A stretch of 64,000 nt of DNA from Desulfobacterales bacterium (GTDB taxonomy: Bacteria > Desulfobacterota > Desulfobacteria > Desulfobacterales > SpSt-501). Location of the stretch: contig JAUQXK010000097.1 of assembly GCA_030834695.1 (NCBI GenBank), positions 24,823-88,822 of the forward strand. Reading direction: 5' to 3'. Positions 19,321 through 58,162 of this stretch are shown here, one piece after another. Position numbers and translations under genes: made by a program. Each line of letters starts with the position of its first letter. Positions within the stretch are counted from its first letter, which is position 1. The notes beneath the pieces are model-generated. The model had not been told where the DNA came from, made no database searches, and saw only the letters and a program-made list of their open reading frames with translations.

Positions 19321-20007
19321 CTATAAACTCTTTCCCGATTGAGCCAGGTCCTTCAGGCCTTGCGCGTCAAGCAAGGCGATTTTCCGGCCTTCGACTTGAA
19401 TGAGCTGCTGGGAAGACAGCTTGGCGAAAATGCGCGAGAGGGTTTCGGGGATCGTGCCGAGGAGGCTGGCCAATTGGCCCTTGGATATGCTCAACGTGAC
19501 CTGATCGAAACAACCCTGTTCATCGGCCAGGTAAAGCAGATAGGTGGCCAGGCGCGCCGGAATCTCCTTGAGCGACAGGTTCTCGATTTGAATCGTGAAC
19601 TGCCGCAGCTTGAGGGATAGATCGGCCAGCAGCTTGAGGGACAACGCCGGGTTTTTTTCGAGCAAGGCGACGAAGGCCGAGCGGGGGAAAAACAGCACGC
19701 GCGCGTCATGAAGGGCTTCCGCATTCGCCGGGAAGTGCTCGCCGGCAAAAACGGGGACCTCCCCGAAGGTCTGCCCGACGGTGAAGATATGCAGGATGTG
19801 CTCCTTGCCGTCGGGGGAGACTTTGAAGATCTTTACGGTTCCCCTAAGAATGACGTAAAAGCCGCTGCCTTCGTCACCCTCGGAGAAAATCAACTCACCT
19901 CGGCCAAAGCTTTTTTCCAGGGCGATGTCCTGGAACTGGTCAAGCTGCGCCCGGCTCATGCCGCTGAAGAGCGGAATCCGCGCGATGACGTCGGCCGCTT
20001 TTTCCAT
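19321..20007 (-). CDS. hcpR: CRP/FNR-family transcriptional regulator, HcpR-like by context
   Basis: 228 aa. cNMP-binding-like beta-roll (GELIFSEGDEGSGFYVILRGTVKIF) plus a C-terminal HTH (SKGQLASLLGTIPETLSRIFAKL). It is divergent from hcp and shares an FNR-type box with it. Confidence 0.75.
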   Translation of the reverse strand: MEKAADVIARIPLFSGMSRAQLDQFQDIALEKSFGRGELIFSEGDEGSGFYVILRGTVKIFKVSPDGKEHILHIFTVGQTFGEVPVFAGEHFPANAEALHDARVLFFPRSAFVALLEKNPALSLKLLADLSLKLRQFTIQIENLSLKEIPARLATYLLYLADEQGCFDQVTLSISKGQLASLLGTIPETLSRIFAKLSSQQLIQVEGRKIALLDAQGLKDLAQSGKSL

Positions 20008-20216: not shown

Positions 20217-20230
20217 TTGATCTAGGTCAA
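20217..20230. promoter_or_regulatory. FNR/CRP-type box TTGATCTAGGTCAA upstream of hcp
   Basis: Palindromic half-sites TTGA...TCAA. The -10-like TAAGAT at 20253-20258 places the box centre near -41.5. It lies 110 bp upstream of hcp ATG. An identical 14-mer is at 22136. Confidence 0.6.
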
Positions 20231-22135: not shown

Positions 22136-22149
22136 TTGATCTAGGTCAA
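22136..22149. promoter_or_regulatory. second identical FNR/CRP-type box TTGATCTAGGTCAA
   Basis: Identical to 20217-20230. The -10-like TAGAAT at 22173-22178 places the centre near -42.5. It lies 76 bp upstream of ATG 22219. Confidence 0.6.
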
Positions 22150-22218: not shown

Positions 22219-22896
22219 ATGCGATGCCCTGGCCAAGACATGCAATACTGGAAACCGGGCGCCATCTTCGAGTCCAATTGTCCGCAATGCGGAAATCCCG
22301 TGGAGTTTTTTAAGGACGACACGGCACGCAAATGCGGCCGGTGCGGCCATCGTTTCGTCAACCCGCAGATGGACTTCGGTTGCGCCGCCTATTGCCCCTA
22401 CGCCGAGCAGTGCCTCGGTACGATGCCGGAGGGGCTTGCCGCCCAAAAGGAAAACCTGCTGAAGGACCGCGTCGCCGTTGAGATGAAGCGCTACTTCCGG
22501 AACGACTTCAAGCGCATCGGCCGTGCCGGCCGGGTGGCCCGGTATGCGGAGCGCATCGGCAAGGCCGAAACGGGCAACCTGGCGGTCATCCTGACGGCGG
22601 CCTACCTGCTGGACATCGACGGCCCGGCCGCCGCGCGCGATATCCTCACCCGACTCGGCGCCCGCGAGGACCTGATCGCCGAGGTCTGTGACATCATCAT
22701 CCATCACCGGTCGTCGCAGACCGGCGACGCCGTCAATCTCCGGGCCGTGTATGACGCCGATGCGCTGGAGTTCCTGGAAGCGGAACACAAACAACATCCC
22801 ATCGATGCCGACGAACTGGCTGCGCGCATCGAACGTTCCTTTTTGACCGCGTCCGGCCGTCAGGCGGCACGGGAAACTCTCATCACTTCGAGGTGA
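22219..22896 (+). CDS. zinc-ribbon + degenerate HD-like domain protein (unknown function)
   Basis: 225 aa. The N-terminus CPG...CPQCG...KCGRCG is homologous to the 26110 ORF. The C-terminus resembles an HD phosphohydrolase scaffold, but reads AAYLLDID where AALLHDIG is expected. Confidence 0.7.
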   Translation: MRCPGQDMQYWKPGAIFESNCPQCGNPVEFFKDDTARKCGRCGHRFVNPQMDFGCAAYCPYAEQCLGTMPEGLAAQKENLLKDRVAVEMKRYFRNDFKRIGRAGRVARYAERIGKAETGNLAVILTAAYLLDIDGPAAARDILTRLGAREDLIAEVCDIIIHHRSSQTGDAVNLRAVYDADALEFLEAEHKQHPIDADELAARIERSFLTASGRQAARETLITSR

Positions 22897-22900
22897 TACC

Positions 22901-23656
22901 ATGAAAGTCATCCGCAAAATCATCAAGATCGACGAAGACCTGTGTAACGGATGCGGCAACTGCGTGCCGGCCTGCGCCGAAGGGGCTCTGGAGATCATCG
23001 ACGGCAAGGCGCGCGTGATCGCCGACATCTACTGCGACGGGCTGGGGGCCTGCCTGGGGGAATGCCCGACCGGCGCCCTGACCATCTCGGAACGGCAGGC
23101 CGACGAGTTTGACGAGCATGCCGTGGAAACGATGCTGGCGGCGAAAGAGAAGACCCCGGAGACTTCCAAGGTGCTGCCCATGGCCGCCGGCGGCTGCCCG
23201 TCGGCCCGCATGGTACAAAGCTTTGGGTCCGCTCCCGCGGCCGCCCCTGTTGCCGGAGAACCCGTTGAATCGGCGCTCAGCCATTGGCCCGTCCAGATCA
23301 TGCTGGTGCCGCCGACGGCGCCGTTTCTGAAGGGGGCGGACCTCCTGGTGCTTGCCGATTGTGTTCCCGTGGCCTTCCCGACCCTCCACCGCGATTTTCT
23401 GCAGGGCAAACGCGTGATGCTCGGCTGTCCCAAGTTCGACAATGCCGAGGCGTATATCGACAAGTTTACTCAAATCTGCAAACAGTCCGGCATCCGCAGC
23501 ATTACTTCGGTGGTCATGGAGGTGCCCTGCTGCGCCGCCCTGCCGGTGATCGTCCAAAAAGGCATGCAGCGTTCCGGCGTCAAGGTGCCGCTGGAGGAAG
23601 TGGTCATCAGCGTGCGCGGCAAAATTATGCAACGCCGCCAGATAGCGACGGCTTGA
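22901..23656 (+). CDS. 4Fe-4S ferredoxin-domain protein (FrdX-like partner of hcp)
   Basis: 251 aa. N-terminal CNGCGNCVPACAEGAL and CDGLGACLGECPTGAL dicluster motifs, plus a Cys-containing C-terminal domain. Confidence 0.75.
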   Translation: MKVIRKIIKIDEDLCNGCGNCVPACAEGALEIIDGKARVIADIYCDGLGACLGECPTGALTISERQADEFDEHAVETMLAAKEKTPETSKVLPMAAGGCPSARMVQSFGSAPAAAPVAGEPVESALSHWPVQIMLVPPTAPFLKGADLLVLADCVPVAFPTLHRDFLQGKRVMLGCPKFDNAEAYIDKFTQICKQSGIRSITSVVMEVPCCAALPVIVQKGMQRSGVKVPLEEVVISVRGKIMQRRQIATA

Positions 23657-23944
23657 TCCTGTCTTGTGAGACACGCCTGTTCCACAAATCAACCCGAGAC
23701 TAGATTGCATTGTCATTTTCGGTGTGATATTCAGAGATTGTTTGACGATATCCCTGATCACCGCCGGCATGGATCGATGCGGTTTTGTATCGGGTTCGCG
23801 TGGCGGGAATGGATCACGGTCTTGCCGCCCGGGCCTCACCGTGAGACCAAACATCTATAATTCAAGCTGTTACAGGCACCCGCCGCTCCTGTTCTCCTCT
23901 GGCATGAAATTTGATTAAGCCACCATGGCTCAAAGCACTTCGCT

Positions 23945-24187
23945 ATGCCGGAAGGAAACGCCGTGAGGCCCTGCAATCTTCATATCGTCAAAACGTTGAA
24001 GTTGACGGAAGAAATGATTCATTTGGCCGACCGCGGCGAGGCGGACCGTGAAGACAACGGATGCGGGATTCTCTACGGAGTCTTGCGGGATTCGGCTTAC
24101 AAGCTCAAGAAATTGGCTGAAGCGGAAAAGCAAAACCACATCCGGAAGGGCTGGTGGGCCCGAAAGGACGACGAAGCCGATCCGTAA
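23945..24187 (+). CDS. small conserved-looking hypothetical protein (80 aa)
   Basis: ATG 23945. MPEGNAVRPCNLHIVKTLKLTEEMIHLADRGEADREDNGCGILYGVLRDSAYKLKKLAE... No family named. It lies directly upstream of rbr. Confidence 0.5.
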   Translation: MPEGNAVRPCNLHIVKTLKLTEEMIHLADRGEADREDNGCGILYGVLRDSAYKLKKLAEAEKQNHIRKGWWARKDDEADP

Positions 24188-24248
24188 TGACACCCCCCAC
24201 GCAATAATGACACGAAGCAAATGATAAAAAAAAGGAGGACTGCAATCG

Positions 24249-24824
24249 ATGTCGAGGATTAAGGGTACGCGCACGGAGAAAAATCTGTTGGCGGCTTTCG
24301 CCGGAGAATCCCAGGCGCGCAACCGCTACACCTATTTCGCCGGCCAGGCCCGCAAAGACGGTCTGGTCCAGATCGCCGATATTTTCATCGAAACCGCCGA
24401 CCAGGAGAAAGAACACGCCAAACGGTTTTTCAAATTTCTGGAAGGCGGCGAAATCGAAATCGCCGGTATTTTCCCGGCCGGAGTCGTCGGAACGACGCTG
24501 GACAATCTGAAAACCGCTGCGGCCGGCGAACGCCACGAACATATCTCCGTGTATCCGGAGTTTGCCAAGGTCGCCGAGGAGGACGGTCTGAAGGATGCGG
24601 CCGCGGCCTTCCGGGCCATCGCGGTGGCCGAGAAGCAGCACGAGAAGCGCTATCGCGACCTGGCGGCCAACATCGAAGCCGGCCGCGTGTTCAAGCGCGA
24701 TGCGAACGTGACCTGGCGCTGCCGCAACTGCGGCTATCTGCACGAGGGCGTGAGCGCTCCCGAGCTTTGCCCGGCCTGTCTGCATCCCCAGGCCCATTTC
24801 GAACTGCTGGGCGAAAACTGGTAA
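24249..24824 (+). CDS. rbr: rubrerythrin
   Basis: 191 aa. Diiron four-helix motifs (ESQARNRY, EKEHAKRF) and a C-terminal rubredoxin-like WRCRNCGY...CPAC. Confidence 0.95.
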   Translation: MSRIKGTRTEKNLLAAFAGESQARNRYTYFAGQARKDGLVQIADIFIETADQEKEHAKRFFKFLEGGEIEIAGIFPAGVVGTTLDNLKTAAAGERHEHISVYPEFAKVAEEDGLKDAAAAFRAIAVAEKQHEKRYRDLAANIEAGRVFKRDANVTWRCRNCGYLHEGVSAPELCPACLHPQAHFELLGENW

Positions 24825-24863
24825 TCCATCACTCAACCCTTTTGCATGGAAAGGAGACCGATC

Positions 24864-25238
24864 ATGGCCGAACAGCTTCAAGTCTACAAATGCGATACCT
24901 GCGGAAACATCGTTGAGGTGCTGCACGGCGGTGGAGGCGAACTGGTATGCTGCGGACAGCCGATGAAACTCTTCAAAGAGAACACCGTGGACGCCGCCAA
25001 GGAAAAGCATGTGCCGGTCGTTGAAAAAACCGCCGACGGATTCAAGGTCAAAGTGGGAAGCGTCGCTCACCCGATGGAGGAGAAGCACTGGATCGAATGG
25101 GTCGAGCTGGTCGCCGACGGCAAGGTTTTTCGCCAGTTTTTGAAACCCGGCCAAGCGCCGGAGGCGACCTTCTGCATCAAGGCCGATAAGGTTGCCGCCC
25201 GCGAGTACTGCAACCTTCACGGCTTGTGGAAAGCGTAG
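24864..25238 (+). CDS. dfx: desulfoferrodoxin (2Fe superoxide reductase)
   Basis: ORF 24846..25238 trimmed to ATG 24864 (AAGGAG upstream). N-terminal desulforedoxin CDTCGN...VCCG and the C-terminal SOR centre (KHVPV..., [18 protein letters not shown]). Confidence 0.95.
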
Positions 25239-25400
25239 GCGCCCCGTCTTTACGGACGCCTGCATCGACTTCAAACCCCTCTCCCGATGGCCCGACGCGG
25301 ATGCCTCGCGGCGGCAACCGGGGGATTCCGGGAATCCCGAAATCGAAGCGGAGGTTCAGACCTCGAAATGATTGGCGGGACCCGGCAGGGAGAAAATGCC

Positions 25401-25568
25401 ATGCCAAGCTGGAAATGTTCTAAGTGCGGCTATACGTTCGAGGCGGACGCGTATCCCAACCAGTGCCCGTCCTGTAAGGAAAAATGTGAATTCCTGGACA
25501 CCACCTGCTATACGCCGGACTGCACCGCCACAGGGATAGATCCGCGCATTGCGAAACCCAAGCCCTGA
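25401..25568 (+). CDS. stand-alone rubredoxin-like zinc-ribbon protein (55 aa)
   Basis: ATG 25401 inside ORF 25287..25568. WKCSKCGYTFEADAYPNQCPSCKEKCEF closely mirrors the C-terminal Rd-like domain of the rubrerythrin above (WRCRNCGYLHEGVSAPELCPAC). Confidence 0.7.
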   Translation: MPSWKCSKCGYTFEADAYPNQCPSCKEKCEFLDTTCYTPDCTATGIDPRIAKPKP

Positions 25569-25643
25569 CCCGCTGCCCGGGTTGTCGGCCAATCAGTTTG
25601 GATGCGGTCCTCGTCACTTGGGCTGCAAAGGAGTGCCGTCGTT

Positions 25644-26081
25644 ATGGGAAAAGTGCTGATTGTATTCGCCAGCCGGACCGGTGAGACCCAAACCATGGCC
25701 GACCTGATCGGCGAGGGTGTTCGCATGGCCGGTCATCAGGCTGAAGTGGTCAATGTAAAGAACGTCAGAAGCGAGGCCGATCTGGCTGCATATGACGGCT
25801 ATGTGTTCGGATCCGCCACTTATCACGGCGACATGTTGCAGGCGATGAAGACCTTTCTGTTCATCGCTGAAAAGGCCCCGCTGGAGGGTAAAATCGGAGG
25901 GGCGTTCGGCTCTTTCGGTTGGAGCGGAGAGGCCAACGACCGAATTTTCCAAACCATGAAAAACATCTTCAAGATGAACATGGTTGCCGACTGCCTCCGG
26001 TTGAAGACGAGCAACCTCGGCGGCGGTGTCCAGATGGCCCAGGATTACGGCCGCCAATTGGCAAAAAAGCTAACCGAGTAG
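25644..26081 (+). CDS. flavodoxin (short-chain)
   Basis: ORF 25602..26081 trimmed to ATG 25644 (AAAGGAG upstream). MGKVLIVFASRTGETQ FMN-phosphate loop and FGSFGWSGEA. Confidence 0.9.
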   Translation: MGKVLIVFASRTGETQTMADLIGEGVRMAGHQAEVVNVKNVRSEADLAAYDGYVFGSATYHGDMLQAMKTFLFIAEKAPLEGKIGGAFGSFGWSGEANDRIFQTMKNIFKMNMVADCLRLKTSNLGGGVQMAQDYGRQLAKKLTE

Positions 26082-26109
26082 AAAATTTCTTTCAGAAAGA
26101 GAGGACGTC

Positions 26110-26325
26110 ATGGCCCCCGATACGACCACGCCTCAGCATTGCCCCGGCTACGCTAACTTTAAGTCGCTGAAGTCCTTCACGTGCAACTGTCCGAAATGCG
26201 GCACGGAAAAAGAGATTTTTTCCGACGAATTCGATCGACCCCACAAGTGCGGCAAATGTGGAGAGCCGATCGATTTCAGGCAGTGCCAGCTGGCGGGCGA
26301 GGGTAAGAGCCTGTCGCCGCGTTGA
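26110..26325 (+). CDS. stand-alone zinc-ribbon protein (71 aa), paralogous to the N-terminus of 22219
   Basis: CPGYANFKSLKSFTCNCPKCGTEKEIFSDEFDRPHKCGKCGEPI aligns with CPGQDMQYWKPGAIFESNCPQCGNPVEFFKDDTARKCGRCGHRF. GAGAGGA RBS upstream. Confidence 0.6.
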   Translation: MAPDTTTPQHCPGYANFKSLKSFTCNCPKCGTEKEIFSDEFDRPHKCGKCGEPIDFRQCQLAGEGKSLSPR

Positions 26326-26402
26326 GCCCTTGCAGCGCATCGCAGGGGTTCTCCCCGTGGGTTGCGGCCTGCTGAGACTCCCCCGCACGGATCCAGAGAC
26401 AA

Positions 26403-26771
26403 ATGACCATACGAATCATCACCCGCAAAAAGCTGATCGCGCTGCTTATAGCCATGCTAACCGCTGGGGGCTGGGCCTGGGCCTCGGGCGCGCCTCCGAA
26501 CCGGGGCGCGGCCGAGATCATCTTGGAAGGCGGAACGAGCGGCAAGGTCGCTTTCCCCCACCAGCGGCACCAGGAAAAGCTGACGGACTGCAACATCTGC
26601 CACGCGGCATTTCCGCAAAAAACCGGCATCATCGAAGAACTCAAGACCCAGGGCAAACTGGCCAAGAAGCAGATCATGAACGAGCAGTGCACCAAATGTC
26701 ACAAGGAAAAGAAACAGGCCGGCGAGAAGGCCGGTCCCACGACCTGTACGACCTGCCACGTCAAACCATGA
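26403..26771 (+). CDS. triheme c7-type (PpcA-like) periplasmic cytochrome c
   Basis: 122 aa. Signal peptide and three CxxCH motifs (CNICH, CTKCH, CTTCH). The FPHQRHQ...C layout and small Lys-rich mature part resemble Geobacter/Desulfuromonas c7. Confidence 0.8.
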   Translation: MTIRIITRKKLIALLIAMLTAGGWAWASGAPPNRGAAEIILEGGTSGKVAFPHQRHQEKLTDCNICHAAFPQKTGIIEELKTQGKLAKKQIMNEQCTKCHKEKKQAGEKAGPTTCTTCHVKP

Positions 26772-26784
26772 TCGGATCCAGACC

Positions 26785-27759
26785 ATGCTGATCCTCGGTT
26801 TACAGGGAAGTCCGCGCAGGAAGGGCAACACGAATTTTCTTCTTTCCACCTTCCTGCAGGCGGCGGAGCGGCGGGGCGCGGTAACGCAGACCATCCAGGT
26901 CGCGGAGCGCAACATTGTGCCCTGCAAGGAATATGTCGTCTGCGAGAAAAAGGGCACTTGCCCCATCAAAGACGACATGGCCAGCGAAATCTACGGGCTG
27001 CTGCGGCAGGCGGAAATCGTCGTGCTGGCCTCGCCCATCTTTTTCTACAACATGACCTCCCAGCTCAAGGCCCTGGTGGACCGCTGCCAGACTTTCTGGG
27101 CGCGCAAGTACCGGCTCAAACTCAGCGACCCGCTTAAGCATACGCGCCGAGGGATTCTGCTCGGCGTCGGAGCAACCCGTGGCAAGAACCTCTTCGAGGG
27201 GTTGCAGTTGACCGCCAAGTATTTTTTCGATGCCATCGATGCCCGCTATGAAGGCAGTCTGGTTTACCGGGGGATCGAGAGTGCGAAGGATCTGGTCAAC
27301 CACCCAACGGTTCGGGAGGAAGTGGAACAGTCGGTGGAGGCTCTGATGGCTCCGTATGCTGCGAGGAAAAAGGTGCTGTTCCTGTGCCGCCAGAACGCCG
27401 GCCGCAGCCAGATGGCCGGCGCCTTCGCCCAGCACCTTGCCGGTGACAAACTGGATGTGGCGACCGGCGGCAGCCGGCCGGCGGAAAAACTGAATCCCGA
27501 TATGGTGTCCGCCATGGCCGAGAAAATGATCGATCTGGCTTTTCGGACCCCTCAGGGGATCGAAGCGGCCCTGGCCAACGGTCAACCAGATGCGATTGTC
27601 ACCATGGGGTGCGGCGAAGAATGCCCGCTGGTTCCCGGAGCCCTGCACCAGGAATGGGACGTGCCGGATCCTTCCGGCCAACCGATAGGGGCCATGCGCC
27701 AGATCCGGGATGAGATCGAATCCCGCGTTAAAGAGTTGATAACCACCCTGTGCGGATGA
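26785..27759 (+). CDS. fusion: NADPH-dependent FMN reductase / iron-sulfur-flavoprotein-like domain + LMW-PTP/ArsC-type arsenate-reductase-like domain
   Basis: The N-terminus MLILGLQGSPRRKGNTNFL...ASPIFFYNMTSQLKALVDR is flavodoxin-like, with C-x5-C-x5-C. The C-terminus KKVLFLCRQNAGRSQMA carries the CX5R(S) P-loop plus GCGEECP and DPSG. Confidence 0.8.
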   Translation: MLILGLQGSPRRKGNTNFLLSTFLQAAERRGAVTQTIQVAERNIVPCKEYVVCEKKGTCPIKDDMASEIYGLLRQAEIVVLASPIFFYNMTSQLKALVDRCQTFWARKYRLKLSDPLKHTRRGILLGVGATRGKNLFEGLQLTAKYFFDAIDARYEGSLVYRGIESAKDLVNHPTVREEVEQSVEALMAPYAARKKVLFLCRQNAGRSQMAGAFAQHLAGDKLDVATGGSRPAEKLNPDMVSAMAEKMIDLAFRTPQGIEAALANGQPDAIVTMGCGEECPLVPGALHQEWDVPDPSGQPIGAMRQIRDEIESRVKELITTLCG

Positions 27760-27788
27760 TATGAACCTGTAACGTTGAGGGAGCGCCC

Positions 27789-27992
27789 GTGTCAAAACCC
27801 GAAGACATGTATCAGTGCCAGACCGTCAACTGCGGCTACATCTACGACCCCGATCGCGGGGACCGCAAGGGCAAAATTCCCAAAGGGGTCCAATTCAGGG
27901 ATCTTCCCGACCACTGGGTCTGCCCGATATGCGGCGCCGGCAAAAAGATGTTCAAACCCCTGGCCGGGCCGGGCTCGGCCCATGAGGCTTAG
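27789..27992 (+). CDS. rubredoxin with atypical C-x4-C first knuckle
   Basis: GTG start. [18 protein letters not shown]...[12 protein letters not shown]. The first pair is CQTVNC (C-x4-C) instead of CxxC. Confidence 0.85.
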
Positions 27993-28105
27993 GGGCAGAC
28001 GCCGGCCGCTGACAGAACGTCGACCATTTAGCCGAGCTTCGAGCGAAATCGGAATAGAAACTGAGAAGCAACACTCTGATTCCAAGATTCCAAAGGAGGA
28101 GAACG

Positions 28106-28267
28106 ATGGCGAAATATGTTTGTCAGGTGTGTGGTTACGTTTATGACCCGGCGCAGGGCGACCCGGACAACGGTGTTGCACCCGGAACCCCCTTCGAAAA
28201 ACTTCCGGACAGCTGGGAATGCCCGGTGTGCGGCGCTTCCAAGGCGGATTTTGCCAAAGAAGCCTGA
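28106..28267 (+). CDS. rub: rubredoxin (canonical, 53 aa; below the ORF-track size cut-off)
   Basis: Hand-translated: [53 protein letters not shown], stop TGA 28265-28267, AAGGAGGAG RBS at 28092-28100. Confidence 0.9.
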
Positions 28268-28294
28268 AGCCGTATTCTGGATCCGGCGACGGTT

Positions 28295-28344
28295 GATGCC
28301 CTTTGCTTTCAGCCTTGGAGCTGAAGAAAAGGGCATCGCCTTTT
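28295..28344 (+). terminator. rho-independent-type terminator after rubredoxin
   Basis: GATGCCCTTTGCTTTCAGC...GCTGAAGAAAAGGGCATC imperfect long stem followed by GCCTTTT. Confidence 0.55.
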
Positions 28345-28453
28345 GGCTCGCCCCGCGCAGGCAACCGCATTCGGCCGGCCGCGAGCGGACAGCCGTTGCC
28401 GACTGGTCTTTGATGATTAATTTCAACCGGAGTGAACCATCCGGATACACGCA

Positions 28454-29722
28454 ATGAGGAAAAAAATGGACCCTGTTCAAATTGCCCCCGGAGTATACAG
28501 CGTGGGTGTCAGAGATTGGAATATCCGGGACTTTCACGGCTATTCCACCGATTTGGGAAGCACTTACAACGCGTTTCTGATCGTGGATGAAAAAATCGCG
28601 CTGATCGACTCGGTCAAAAAGCAATTCGCCGACCAACTGATCGACAACATCGCCCGCATCGTCGATCCGCGCAAAATCGACGTGGTGATCAGCAATCACA
28701 CCGAGCTCGACCATTCCGGGAGCCTCGCCCGCATCATGCACCGGGTCGGTGAAGACAAACCGTTGTACTGCTCGAAAATGGGGGCGAAAAACCTGGCCCG
28801 CCATTTCCCTCAGCAGTGGAATTACCGCGCCGTCGGCTCGGGCGAAGAGCTGAAACTCGGCAGACGCACCCTGACTTTTCTGGAAACCCGCATGATCCAC
28901 TGGCCGGACAGCATGTTCTCCTACCTCCGGGAGGACGGCATCCTCTTTTCGAGCGACGGCTTCGGCCAGCACTACGCCGGCCCGGAGACCTTCGACGACG
29001 AGATCGGGGACCGGATCATGGTCCACGCCAAGAAATACTTCGCCAATATCCTGCTGCTCTATGCGACCCATATCGAAAAGCTGATCCGGCAGGTAGCCGA
29101 CATGAAGCTGAATCTGCGCATGATCTGCCCGGACCACGGGGTCATCTGGCGCCGCGATCCCGGCAGGATCGTCCAGGCCTATCTCGATTGGTGCCGCCAG
29201 GAGCCGGAGCGAAAGGCGGCTGTGATCTACGACACCATGTGGCACAGCACCGAGAAGATGGCCGAGGCCATCAACGCGGGGATCATGGCGGCGGGCGTGC
29301 CGTCCAAGCCGATGCATCTGCGGTCCTGGCATCGCAGCGAAGTGATGACCGAGGTTTTTGACGCTCGCGCCGTGGTCGTGGGTTCTCCCACCCTGAACAA
29401 CGGCTTGTTTCCCACGATCGCTGATTTTCTTTGCTACATGAAGGGCCTCAAACCGAAGAACAAGATCGGAGCGGCGTTCGGCTCTTACGGATGGAGCGGG
29501 GAGGCCGTCAAACTGATCGAGGGCGAGTTGACCGACATGAAGATCGAACTCGCCCAGCCGGGACTGCGAACTCAGTTCGTTCCCGAAAAAGCGATACTGG
29601 ACACCTGCCATGAATTCGGATTCAAGATCGGCCAGGCCGTAGCGGCAGCTCCCGGTGCCGGCGCGCGGGCGGCTGTCGGATCGCCCGGGCACAGCCGGAC
29701 GGCGCTGAATGAGCTGAAATGA
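28454..29722 (+). CDS. roo: flavodiiron protein (rubredoxin:oxygen oxidoreductase / NO reductase type)
   Basis: 422 aa (alternative start ATG 28466). Metallo-beta-lactamase-like diiron motif ISNHTELDHSGS and a C-terminal flavodoxin domain (GSPTLNNG, FGSYGWSGEA). Confidence 0.95.
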   Translation: MRKKMDPVQIAPGVYSVGVRDWNIRDFHGYSTDLGSTYNAFLIVDEKIALIDSVKKQFADQLIDNIARIVDPRKIDVVISNHTELDHSGSLARIMHRVGEDKPLYCSKMGAKNLARHFPQQWNYRAVGSGEELKLGRRTLTFLETRMIHWPDSMFSYLREDGILFSSDGFGQHYAGPETFDDEIGDRIMVHAKKYFANILLLYATHIEKLIRQVADMKLNLRMICPDHGVIWRRDPGRIVQAYLDWCRQEPERKAAVIYDTMWHSTEKMAEAINAGIMAAGVPSKPMHLRSWHRSEVMTEVFDARAVVVGSPTLNNGLFPTIADFLCYMKGLKPKNKIGAAFGSYGWSGEAVKLIEGELTDMKIELAQPGLRTQFVPEKAILDTCHEFGFKIGQAVAAAPGAGARAAVGSPGHSRTALNELK

Positions 29723-29913
29723 TGAAACGCCCCATTGTCGAACTGAGCGATTGCATACGCTGCGAGGTGTGCGTCGCGGCCTGTCCGGCGGCCTTTCGCA
29801 TGAACGATGCCGGATTCGTCGAAGTCATCGACCTGAGCGCCTACCCCGACGATGAGGTGAACGAGGCCATCCGAGACTGCCCGGCGGATTGCATCCGCTG
29901 GGAGGAAGAATAG
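29719..29913 (+). CDS. small single-cluster ferredoxin
   Basis: 64 aa. CIRCEVCVAACP...CPADCI. The ATGA overlaps the FDP stop. Confidence 0.85.
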   Translation: MMKRPIVELSDCIRCEVCVAACPAAFRMNDAGFVEVIDLSAYPDDEVNEAIRDCPADCIRWEEE

Positions 29914-29928
29914 TTTTCCAATCATCAC

Positions 29929-30669
29929 ATGGTAGAGGCGCGACAGCGAGCCGCATCGATGAAACCGGAACGTCCTGTCAGCGGGCGCGAGCTCAAACGG
30001 ATGCTGGCTGGCCTGCTGGTAGCCGATACCTTTCCGTCGTCCTTGGATGCCATTGACGGCCTGCCGGGCCGGCGGGTCGTCAATCCCTTGTTCGCGTTTT
30101 TCTGTGACACGGATGCGTTGCGGCGCTGGCGGGCCGTGACCGCGATGGGCCGGGTGGTATCCCGCCTGGCCGATGAGAACCTGGAATCCGCGCGGGTGGT
30201 CATGCGGCGCTTCATGTGGAACCTGAACGAGGAATCCGGCGGAATCGGCTGGGGCTGCCCGGAAGCCATGGGGGAATGCATGGCTCGCAGCGACCGGCTG
30301 GCCGACGAATACGGCTGCATCCTGTCGTCCTACCTGCACCCGGAGCGCAATTTCATCGAGCACCCGGCCCTGCAGGAAGGCGTGTTGTGGGGCATCGGAC
30401 GATTGGCGCAGTCACGGCCCGCATCGATGGCCGGCTGCGCGGAGTTTCTGGCGCCCTTTCTGGGATCGCCCGAGGCGGCGCTGCGAGGGCTGGCCGCCTG
30501 GGCCGGCGGACCTCTGGCCGATGCCCGCCTGACGCCGCTTCTGGGAAAACTGACGGGCGACCGCGCATCCTTCCGACTCTACCGCGGGGAACGCCTGGAG
30601 GTATGTTTCGTGGGCGAACTGGCCCTGCAGGCGCTGCGGTGGGCACCCATGAACTCTCCGGAGAAGTGA
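29929..30669 (+). CDS. helical-repeat (HEAT-like) hypothetical protein; I recall similar proteins named DVU0298 family
   Basis: 246 aa, Leu/Ala/Arg-rich helical repeats with a conserved-looking core WNLNEESGGIGWGCPEAMGE. The family name comes from memory only. Confidence 0.6.
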   Translation: MVEARQRAASMKPERPVSGRELKRMLAGLLVADTFPSSLDAIDGLPGRRVVNPLFAFFCDTDALRRWRAVTAMGRVVSRLADENLESARVVMRRFMWNLNEESGGIGWGCPEAMGECMARSDRLADEYGCILSSYLHPERNFIEHPALQEGVLWGIGRLAQSRPASMAGCAEFLAPFLGSPEAALRGLAAWAGGPLADARLTPLLGKLTGDRASFRLYRGERLEVCFVGELALQALRWAPMNSPEK

Positions 30670-30676
30670 ACCTGAT

Positions 30677-31486
30677 ATGAAATGGACCCCTGAAGCCGAA
30701 GCCGCTCTGAAACAGGTCCCTTTTTTCGTTCGCAAGCGGGTGCGGGCGCGCGTGGAGAACGAGGCGCACGATGCCGGGCGGGACAGCATCACCCTGGCCG
30801 ACGTCAAGGCCACGCAGGCACGCTACCTGTCCGGCATGCAATCCGAAATCAAGGGCTACCAGCTCGACACCTGCTTCGGCCCCAGCGGCTGCCCCAACCG
30901 GGCGGTGGTCAGCGAGTCGCTGCTGGCACGCGTCGAAACCGTGCTCAAAGCCGCCGATCTGCTGAGCTTTCTCAAATCCCGCGTGCCGGGCGATCTCAAG
31001 TTCCACCACGAATTCCGGGCCACCCTGGCCGACTGCCCGAACGCCTGCTCGCAGCCGCAAATCAAGGACATCGGCATCATCGGCGCCGCGGTTCCGGAAA
31101 CCACGAACGACGCCTGTTCCCAATGCGGCGCCTGCATCGAATCCTGCTCGGAGCAGGCGATCGCAACCGCCGATGGAGGCGGCCCGCCCCGCATCGACAC
31201 GCAGCGCTGCCTGAACTGCGGCCAGTGCGTCCGGGCCTGCCCCACCGGAACGATCGCCGAAGGCTGGAGCGGGTTCCGGGTTCAGCTCGGCGGGCGGCTC
31301 GGCCGCCATCCCCGGCTGGCGCGTGAACTGCCGGGCATCTTCAACGAAGATCAGACGATCGAGATCCTGCAGGCCTGTCTGGAGCTTTACAAGACGCGCA
31401 GCCGACACGGCGAACGTTTCGCCCATCTTTTCCAGGACAGCGACTTCGAGGATTTTTCGCACCGGTTTTGCGGCACCGATATTTGA
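30677..31486 (+). CDS. Fe-S protein: PCP-reductase-like N-terminal domain + sulfite/nitrite-reductase-like ferredoxin domain with 2x[4Fe-4S] motifs
   Basis: The WTPEAEAALKQVPFFVRKRVRARVENEA N-terminal module, then CSQCGACIESC and CLNCGQCVRACP. Confidence 0.7.
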   Translation: MKWTPEAEAALKQVPFFVRKRVRARVENEAHDAGRDSITLADVKATQARYLSGMQSEIKGYQLDTCFGPSGCPNRAVVSESLLARVETVLKAADLLSFLKSRVPGDLKFHHEFRATLADCPNACSQPQIKDIGIIGAAVPETTNDACSQCGACIESCSEQAIATADGGGPPRIDTQRCLNCGQCVRACPTGTIAEGWSGFRVQLGGRLGRHPRLARELPGIFNEDQTIEILQACLELYKTRSRHGERFAHLFQDSDFEDFSHRFCGTDI

Positions 31487-57721: not shown

Positions 57722-58162
57722 ATGAAGACAAGACGCAGGTACTTGGCGGAGGCGTTAAAGCACCCGGCCGAAAGCCGTCAATCAAAGAAAGCATCCCGGA
57801 AACGAAGCATGAGTCTGCTGAGCATGGCCCTGCTGGGTGCGGTTTTATTCTGCGGAACGGCTGCTCATTCGGCCATGACCGGAGCCGATTTCCTGCAAGC
57901 CCCCCAATCGTACCAGAGTGGTTTCGTCAATGGATTCGTTAGAGGCATGTATTCGACCTGCCTGGACCATCTCGAGACCAGGAAAGAAATCTGTTCCTTT
58001 GCTCCTCAACTCGATGCCGCCTTCGACATGACCCCTGAACAGGTCCTGGATCTTTTCTTGAGCTACATCAAAAAGAATAGTGCGCTCCAGCAAAAAGAAG
58101 CATCCGAGTTGCTCGTCGACTGCCTGAAAGAGACTGCCAATAAACCAGCCAATCCCCAGTAA
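57722..58162 (+). CDS. secreted hypothetical protein
   Basis: 146 aa (alternative start at 57809, MSLLSMALLG...). Signal peptide LLGAVLFCGTAAHSA. No family recognised. Confidence 0.5.
   Translation: MKTRRRYLAEALKHPAESRQSKKASRKRSMSLLSMALLGAVLFCGTAAHSAMTGADFLQAPQSYQSGFVNGFVRGMYSTCLDHLETRKEICSFAPQLDAAFDMTPEQVLDLFLSYIKKNSALQQKEASELLVDCLKETANKPANPQ

Follow-up and report, generated by a model that had tools for sequence, protein, structure and literature searches.

The 64,000-nucleotide stretch of DNA analyzed here (the window; contig JAUQXK010000097.1 of a Desulfobacterales bacterium) carries a run of genes from 22219 to 31486 that all lie on the plus strand, separated by short gaps, and the subject of this study is one gene within that run, an open reading frame (ORF) in which two enzyme folds are joined (Table 1). 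A first-pass annotation had read the 324-aa frame as the fusion of a flavodoxin-like domain of the iron-sulfur flavoprotein (Isf) type to a domain of the low-molecular-weight protein-tyrosine phosphatase (LMW-PTP)/arsenate reductase (ArsC) kind, and this is what profile searches recover: three Pfam families match above their gathering cut-offs, FMN_red (PF03358) at residues 1–108 (E 7e-19, 68.3 bits against a cut-off of 24), Flavodoxin_2 (PF02525) at residues 2–186 (E 2.8e-8, 34.2 bits against 27) and LMWPc (PF01451) at residues 197–318 (E 5.8e-16, 59.4 bits against 23.2). The motifs claimed for it were all located, GSPRRKGNT at residues 8–16, C47-x5-C53-x5-C59, CRQNAGRS at residues 201–208 and GCGEECP at residues 275–281. 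The N-domain (residues 1–190) and the C-domain (residues 195–322) meet at a joint of about four residues, and AlphaFold2, run with a 51-sequence alignment, returned a single compact two-domain model (mean pLDDT 93.2, pTM 0.92) in which the last helix of the N-domain (residues 176–191) enters the first strand of the C-domain (residues 195–201) after three to four residues; the least confident block, residues 271–280 (pLDDT 76), is the loop that holds Cys276 and Cys280. No solved structure contains both domains, the matches in the PDB covering one or the other. A long antisense ORF at 26800–27795 is a shadow frame of the kind that G+C-rich coding DNA usually produces. What lies at the locus is a single conserved ORF for an Isf-like flavoprotein followed by an ArsC1'-type domain.

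The fusion is widespread and conserved in length. Among 5.8 billion proteins, a word-indexed search picked out 3474 relatives; the best 120 clusters share 70–91% identity, are 301–330 aa long (nearly all exactly 323–325 aa) and match the same three Pfam families without exception. About 30 distinct 50%-identity clusters of full-length fusions came out of an exhaustive HMMER search of 1.84 billion representatives. Among related genomes a match was present in 59 of 61 (about 45 of them full-length), including 24 of the 26 others of the same genus; in a sample of 300 genomes from the phylum, the full-length fusion occurred in about 40, spread over several families, and roughly 100 encoded a stand-alone N-domain homolog of about 200 aa only. 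The one-ORF architecture, for which a domain search had been proposed, was thus recovered in more than 120 protein clusters and, in a scan of one genome per species, in 247 genomes, from which 80 loci were kept for comparison. Of these, 79 are labeled as Desulfobacterales or as unclassified delta-proteobacterial metagenome-assembled genomes (MAGs) and one as Hyphomicrobiales. On this last contig (L024, JBLMXM010000127.1) the operon from hcp to the ferredoxin gene shows 71–92% protein identity to the window, and the contig is probably mis-binned.

The first-pass annotation had raised the worry that an assembly error or a frameshift joined two adjacent genes, and conservation removes it. The fusion is held as one frame in the 80 loci except for one shortened copy (L047), the uninterrupted frame recurs in hundreds of independent assemblies, and among close relatives Nei-Gojobori dN/dS has a median of 0.10 in the N-domain against 0.21 in the C-domain; therefore both halves are kept by selection. 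An artefactual or chimeric origin was rejected on this combination of conservation and purifying selection, and we regard its probability as negligible. Nothing in its favor was found, yet two relatives have broken copies: one with a frameshift near residue 100, in which the P-loop Cys and the Cys pair are also missing (genome G027, L102 3665–4643), and one with an internal TGA (genome G014, contig C16). These may be pseudogenes or MAG errors.

Table 1. The fusion gene, its sequence features and the surrounding genes, in window coordinates. The last column gives the number of loci, out of the 80 compared, with an ortholog within 7 kb of the fusion.
Feature	Position	Strand	Basis or remark	Loci (of 80)
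Whole fusion ORF, 324 aa + stop	26785..27759	+	ATG 26785, TGA 27759	
N-domain, flavodoxin fold, FMN_red/Isf-like, residues 1-190	26785..27354	+	Pfam FMN_red, Flavodoxin_2; PDB profile search; Foldseek	
GSPRRKGNT, residues 8-16, loop after strand 1	26806..26832	+	usual FMN-phosphate loop of the fold	
Compact Cys loop C47-KEYVV-C53-EKKGT-C59, Tyr50 for second Cys	26923..26961	+	Isf-type motif	
Cys101 in D99-R100-C-Q102	27085..27087	+	candidate substitute cluster ligand (speculative)	
C-domain, LMW-PTP fold, ArsC1'-type, residues 195-322	27367..27750	+	Pfam LMWPc; PDB 3t38; Foldseek	
P-loop C201-RQNAG-R207-S208 (CX5R-S)	27385..27408	+	aligned to 3t38	
G-C276-GEE-C280-P, resolving Cys pair	27607..27627	+	aligned to 3t38; low-pLDDT stretch	
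D295-P296, 'DP' general-acid motif	27667..27672	+	D295 aligned to 3t38 D181	
Conserved upstream block: rubrerythrin, desulfoferrodoxin, rubredoxin-like, flavodoxin, 71-aa zinc-ribbon protein	24249..26325	+		flavodoxin 64, rubredoxin-like 63, desulfoferrodoxin 55
71-aa Cys-rich zinc-ribbon protein	26110-26325	+	no Pfam match	65
c7-type cytochrome	26403..26771	+	Pfam Cytochrome_C7; stop 13 nt before fusion start	50
Rubredoxin, 67 aa	27789..27992	+	Pfam Rubredoxin 3e-20; starts 29 nt after fusion stop	
Second rubredoxin, 53 aa	28106..28267	+		74
Flavodiiron protein (ROO/FDP type)	28454..29722	+	Pfam ODP + Flavodoxin_1	60
FNR/CRP-type palindrome TTGATCTAGGTCAA, exact 14-mer	22136..22149	+	ahead of first gene of co-directional block	
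Identical TTGATCTAGGTCAA copy	20217-20230		ahead of hcp	

The genetic setting of the fusion is equally constant. When the 80 loci were compared with the window proteins by BLASTP, the following order was found to be retained down to 55% identity: small protein, rubrerythrin, desulfoferrodoxin, rubredoxin-like protein, flavodoxin, 71-aa zinc-ribbon protein, (cytochrome c7), fusion, (67-aa rubredoxin), 53-aa rubredoxin, flavodiiron protein, ferredoxin, HEAT protein; the slot of the fusion itself is retained in all 80 at 55–91% identity. Where downstream sequence is available (76 loci), the next gene encodes a rubredoxin in 70 (median gap 73 nt); where upstream sequence is available (72 loci), the gene directly before the fusion encodes cytochrome c7 in 48. 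No convincing plus-strand terminator separates the fusion from its cytochrome c7 and rubredoxin neighbors in the window. The c7-type cytochrome is probably a periplasmic heme protein and sits inside a cytoplasmic defense operon. The alternative offered at first annotation, a role in oxidative stress rather than in arsenate reduction, fits this setting strongly, the fusion being a fixed member of an oxygen-defense operon in 80 of 80 related loci.

Two exact copies of TTGATCTAGGTCAA stand in the upstream region, where chance alone would give 0.16 matches with as many as two mismatches allowed, and the pair fits an HcpR/FNR-type regulon under the divergent CRP-family regulator encoded at 19321–20007. 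A copy with two mismatches lies at 58058.

Beyond these close relatives, 14 loci from other families of the phylum showed rubredoxin adjacency in five and oxygen-defense genes nearby in seven, the rest having unrelated neighbors (solute-binding proteins, FKBP, OmpA, topoisomerase, and CoA_binding_2 and DUF166 proteins twice each); no common theme besides rubredoxin and oxygen defense emerged from them. The gene directly upstream of the fusion encodes a DUF166 protein at L115 (7200–7892) and L119 (5366–6058), and a CoA_binding_2 protein at L110 (5579–6004) and L112 (5529–5945); a SufBD gene is also found near the fusion at L119. Of 20 loci with a stand-alone Isf-like homolog in other families, six have a rubredoxin-like or flavodoxin gene immediately next to it and three more have rubredoxin-type genes within about 5 kb, and the zinc-ribbon gene adjoins one such stand-alone gene in another family (L122).

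The N-domain belongs to a broad superfamily of flavoproteins. A PDB search with a 21-sequence profile placed flavone reductase (7d38) and a Bacillus subtilis protein (1rli) first, both at about 5e-11, with weak matches to azoreductases, NQO2 and SsuE following, and Foldseek with the N-domain model, in which strand-helix units alternate, matched FMN azoreductases, 1rli and 1sqs. The residues G8, S9, P10 and R11, D99 and R100, Q102 and W105 are invariant in 51 sequences; S9 and P10 are also invariant in a set of 37, and GSPRxxGNT as a whole is invariant or nearly so. Binding of FMN is predicted from family membership. An identity as ArsH was considered and rejected, since no ArsH model appeared among the NCBIfam matches even at E values up to 1; the weak matches obtained were to SsuE, KefF, WrbA, MsuE, KefG and an FMN-dependent azoreductase model. 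A Pfam scan of the fusion found no FAD/NAD(P)-binding pyridine-nucleotide-disulfide oxidoreductase domain of the NADH:rubredoxin oxidoreductase (NROR) type.

A more complicated picture is seen in the cysteine loop. In Isf proteins a compact motif, CX2CX2CX4-7C, ligates a [4Fe-4S] cluster; PMC3164229 describes the motif as CX2CX2CX5-7C. The earlier assignment to Isf holds for the domain; the C-x5-C-x5-C quoted in its support is the Isf motif with the second Cys replaced by Tyr50, so that three ligands rather than four are present in the window protein. C47, C53 and C59 are kept in all 81 orthologs compared, and position 50 is Tyr in 45, Leu in 22, Phe in 7 and Cys in only 7; the full four-Cys loop occurs in more distant fusions and in many stand-alone homologs. 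Two forms of the loop recur in fused and stand-alone proteins alike (noted in the window, at L002 on contig C128 of the same genome, and at L124–L127 and L134), a four-Cys form, CxxCxxCx5C, and a three-Cys form, C-x5-C-x5-C-P-I, in which the second Cys has become Tyr, Leu or Phe and a Pro follows the last Cys; stand-alone paralogs also show the three-Cys form. Cys101 is present in 59 of 81 sequences and might serve as a substitute ligand, because it is frequent in the three-Cys orthologs (58 of 73) and rare in the four-Cys ones (1 of 7). Among the fusion sequences compared, the state of position 50 showed no clear pattern with the integrity of the C-domain.

Among proteins of solved structure, the C-domain is most closely matched by Corynebacterium glutamicum Cg_ArsC1' (PDB 3t38; E 8e-24, 34% identity across 125 residues), followed by Cg_ArsC2, Synechocystis ArsC, and the pI258 and Bacillus ArsC proteins. 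In the HMMER alignment C201, R207, C276, C280 and D295 correspond to C88, R94, C162, C166 and D181 of 3t38, and Foldseek superposed the model on pI258 ArsC and Cg_ArsC2 with TM scores of 0.85–0.88 and an rmsd of 1.6–2.6 Å. Most orthologs keep these residues: in the P-loop C201, N204 and S208 are each found in 78 of 81 and R207 in 72, the resolving cysteines C276 and C280 in 69 and 73, and D295 and P296 of the DP motif in 74 and 78; the tetrad C201/R207/C276/C280 is complete in 66. The site is thus still under selection in most lineages. A Pfam match to LMWPc, a CX5R(S) loop and a DP motif would equally suit a phosphatase acting on phosphotyrosine or phosphoarginine in some stress-signaling target, and yet we consider this very unlikely: the best matches in sequence and in structure are arsenate reductases, no kinase or signaling gene was seen among the neighbors examined, and the conserved Cys276/Cys280 pair, a feature of ArsC that phosphatases do not need, points to a reductase. 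The nearest relatives of the C-domain outside fusions, from the representative search (P0168, P0179, P0183, P0187, P0202 and P0236), include tandem proteins with two ArsC-type domains. Several of these combine one domain of the GCGDxCP type with one lacking the Cys pair, and some also have an ArsR-type helix-turn-helix N-terminus; P0236 is a truncated ArsR–ArsC protein.

The two halves differ in how strictly they are kept. The N-domain is the constant part of the gene in its operon, because its motifs are invariant, because an orthologue consisting of the N-domain only can occupy the slot, and because copies with a dead C-domain stand in an identical operon. In genome G037 (L100 4097–4696) a 199-aa N-domain-only ortholog with the four-Cys loop lies between the cytochrome c7 and rubredoxin genes, the operon being otherwise unchanged around it, and the dead-site ortholog P0069 (R207L, C276G, C280E) is an example of the second kind. 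On a maximum-likelihood tree of 80 orthologs, a degenerate tetrad requires nine changes, and branches with good support make eight or more of these unavoidable; the four columns that define the trait were kept in building the tree and, being 4 of 324, carry small weight. Among the more divergent 50%-identity representatives of the fusion, about half lack the P-loop Cys or Arg. As the tetrad has been lost repeatedly with domain and slot kept, the ArsC chemistry is best seen as an optional extra on a structurally integrated domain, which argues that it is an add-on and not the reason for the gene's place in the operon.

These same losses could be taken further, to mean that the C-domain is mainly regulatory or structural, either a thiol redox switch that gates the flavoprotein on oxidation of the cell or a scaffold for oligomerization or docking, with no substrate of its own. 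The domain is indeed kept at a dN/dS of 0.21 even where Cys201, Arg207, Cys276 or Cys280 is gone, many distant representatives have a defective P-loop as just described, and the compact model with its short linker suits a structural part. We find this improbable all the same. A thiol switch has no need of Arg207, Asn204, Ser208 or Asp295, yet these are conserved in 72–78 of 81 sequences, which favors catalysis of the oxyanion type over a bare switch; the whole tetrad persists in most orthologs, and the N-domain-only ortholog in the same slot shows that the module is not structurally essential.

The link to arsenic was followed separately. As first noted from the window, ars genes are not nearby: none lies in the surrounding 12 kb, and none is adjacent to the fusion in 94 loci (the 80 together with the 14 from other families). 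The genome from which the window derives has an ArsR-ACR3 pair on another contig (C127; L104 981–2514) with no arsC beside it, and a stand-alone candidate for a pI258-like ArsC on a further one (C68; L003, about 1486–1944) with the motifs CRHNSGRSQ and CSDTEQQCP. This candidate adjoins PhoH-like and acetyltransferase-like ORFs. Membership of the fusion in an arsenic-resistance operon was rejected on these grounds, the absence of ars neighbors and the presence of ArsR-ACR3 and of an ArsC-like gene elsewhere.

A subtler form of the arsenic hypothesis treats the halves as independent, the C-domain being an ordinary thioredoxin-dependent arsenate reductase that draws no electrons from the flavoprotein half. 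An operon induced by oxygen would suit such an enzyme, since arsenite in sediments oxidizes to arsenate on oxygen intrusion; the catalytic set of Cg_ArsC1' is complete, the tetrad is conserved in the majority of orthologs, its sporadic loss is typical of an environment-dependent resistance function, the ArsR-ACR3 pair lacks a neighboring arsC, and the course of the connecting helix (see below) is also consistent. Against this stand the lack of any adjacent ars gene, redundancy with the stand-alone ArsC-like gene, which is found in the same genome and in at least 15 genomes of the same genus, and the rigid linker of about four residues, the single-body model and the retention of dead domains, which suggest structural integration. 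We therefore hold independence of the halves to be unlikely.

The reading we tentatively favor, as quite possible if short of probable, is that the fusion is an oxygen-defense electron-transfer flavoprotein that works with rubredoxin and carries a predicted thiol-cascade reductase domain, and is not an arsenic-resistance gene. It would be a two-domain cytoplasmic redox protein, and it is a fixed part of the operon by which Desulfobacterales defend themselves against O2, reactive oxygen species and perhaps NO. The core function would reside in the N-domain, with FMN and a three-Cys iron-sulfur cluster, which could exchange electrons with the adjacent rubredoxin and thereby serve the flavodiiron protein, desulfoferrodoxin and rubrerythrin. 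Methanosarcina Isf is reported to reduce O2 and H2O2, and the N-domain may alternatively do so directly. We regard the fusion as the best candidate for the point of electron entry because no other protein of the block belongs to a family with oxidizers of NAD(P)H among its members, and because the ten neighboring proteins scanned with Pfam have no NAD(P)H-binding domain. The C-domain would be an accessory thiol-cascade reductase, probably active to judge from its conserved residues: the nucleophile Cys201, within the CX5R loop, would act on arsenate or a similar tetrahedral oxyanion, or on some other oxidized substrate; the resulting Cys201–Cys276 disulfide would be handed on to Cys276–Cys280 on the flexible loop; and this disulfide might be re-reduced by thioredoxin or, as the first-pass annotation suggested with its built-in reductant, by the attached flavoprotein, perhaps that of a neighboring subunit.

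Several points weigh against this proposal, which should be interpreted with corresponding caution. The three-Cys motif makes the cofactor content uncertain, and co-transcription of the fusion with rubredoxin is predicted from spacing and synteny only. Methanosarcina Isf is reported to use ferredoxin and not NAD(P)H, so that NAD(P)H is no more than a candidate donor for the fusion. The C-domain scores 64–77 bits against the NCBIfam ArsC models (TIGR02691, NF010053 and TIGR02689), whose cut-offs are 157.6–215, and is therefore a divergent member of the ArsC branch rather than an equivalog, and the repeated loss of the tetrad shows that its chemistry is dispensable in some lineages. By the topology of the flavodoxin fold, the helix that leads into the C-domain should end opposite the FMN site; transfer from flavin to disulfide within one chain is thus not obviously favored, and recycling between subunits is more plausible.

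In a bolder variant, which we consider doubtful, the two halves are directly coupled. Here the flavin/iron-sulfur domain would directly re-reduce Cys276–Cys280, probably across the subunits of an oligomer, giving a thioredoxin-independent reductase of the ArsC fold that is driven by a low-potential carrier or NAD(P)H and acts on a compound that oxygen stress produces. An FTR-like role might then fall to the site-differentiated cluster with its three Cys, and the physiological substrate could be an oxidized thiol, a species derived from peroxide, or arsenate that oxidation has generated, as opposed to arsenate in the role of a resistance target. If this were true, two known folds would have given rise to a new enzyme class, filling the place of electron entry and thiol link in the oxygen defense of Desulfobacterales.

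The protein deserves attention on other grounds as well. In marine and freshwater sediments, carbon turnover is dominated by sulfate reducers of the Desulfobacterales, which withstand regular pulses of oxygen. Electrons must enter their rubredoxin-based defense (flavodiiron protein, desulfoferrodoxin and rubrerythrin) at some point, and the fusion, which is carried by hundreds of species, is the best candidate for it. It offers a natural test of whether a fused flavoprotein can recycle an ArsC-type cysteine cascade in place of thioredoxin, and its evolutionarily optional ArsC-like site provides a clean case of an enzyme domain drifting toward a pseudo-enzyme. Public annotations of the fusion disagree ('NAD(P)H-dependent oxidoreductase', 'multimeric flavodoxin WrbA/protein-tyrosine-phosphatase', 'arsenate reductase', 'arsenite transporter/arsenate reductase'), and metagenomic surveys that count arsenic-resistance genes may be misled by those names that refer to arsenic.

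Among known systems, the closest counterpart of the N-domain is the Isf of Methanosarcina thermophila (PMC3164229), the prototype of its family. The fusion shares with it an FMN domain of flavodoxin type, about 190 aa long, a compact Cys loop that agrees in position and spacing, strictly anaerobic hosts, a link to O2/H2O2 stress and, in its distant members, the four-Cys loop. The fusion differs from it in the Tyr that replaces the second Cys, in the 130-aa ArsC-type C-terminal domain and in its rubredoxin and flavodiiron gene neighborhood. The Methanosarcina protein is reportedly described in Latimer 1996, Zhao 2001, Andrade 2005, and Cruz and Ferry 2006. The C-domain in turn shares with the thioredoxin-coupled, three-cysteine enzyme Cg_ArsC1' (3t38) its fold and the placement of the nucleophilic Cys, the Arg, the GCGxxCP pair and the Asp; Cg_ArsC1' begins with some 80 unrelated residues (it is matched from residue 82 of 213 onward) and its gene lies in an ars operon, whereas the C-domain described here forms one protein with a flavoprotein domain, lacks ars genes as neighbors and falls below every NCBIfam ArsC cut-off. 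With the ArsC proteins of Staphylococcus aureus pI258 and Bacillus subtilis it has in common the fold (TM 0.82–0.88, rmsd 1.6–2.0 Å), the CX5R-S loop, the DP motif and the logic of a three-cysteine relay, although the spacing of its resolving cysteines follows the actinobacterial GCGxxCP type and not that of C82/C89; position 206, a Gly in the window protein, is Cys in 64 of 81 orthologs, as in pI258.

The concept of a flavoprotein or dedicated reductant tied genetically to ArsC is shared with ArsH, an NADPH-dependent FMN reductase and member of the broad FMN_red superfamily, and with ArsT/ArsX (thioredoxin reductase/thioredoxin), which are encoded by separate genes within some ars operons; unlike ArsH, the N-domain matches no ArsH model and has the Isf-type Cys loop. 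In its proposed role, electron entry to rubredoxin for flavodiiron protein, SOR and rubrerythrin, the fusion would resemble the NROR enzymes of clostridia, Pyrococcus and Desulfovibrio gigas. Those of clostridia and Pyrococcus are FAD enzymes with the pyridine-nucleotide-disulfide oxidoreductase fold, and that of D. gigas is described only as an FAD/FMN protein; as the fusion has no domain of the NROR type, the likeness would be functional only. A full-text literature search found no description of the fusion, which is a combination of two known folds, uncharacterized and widespread, with a clear physiological setting.

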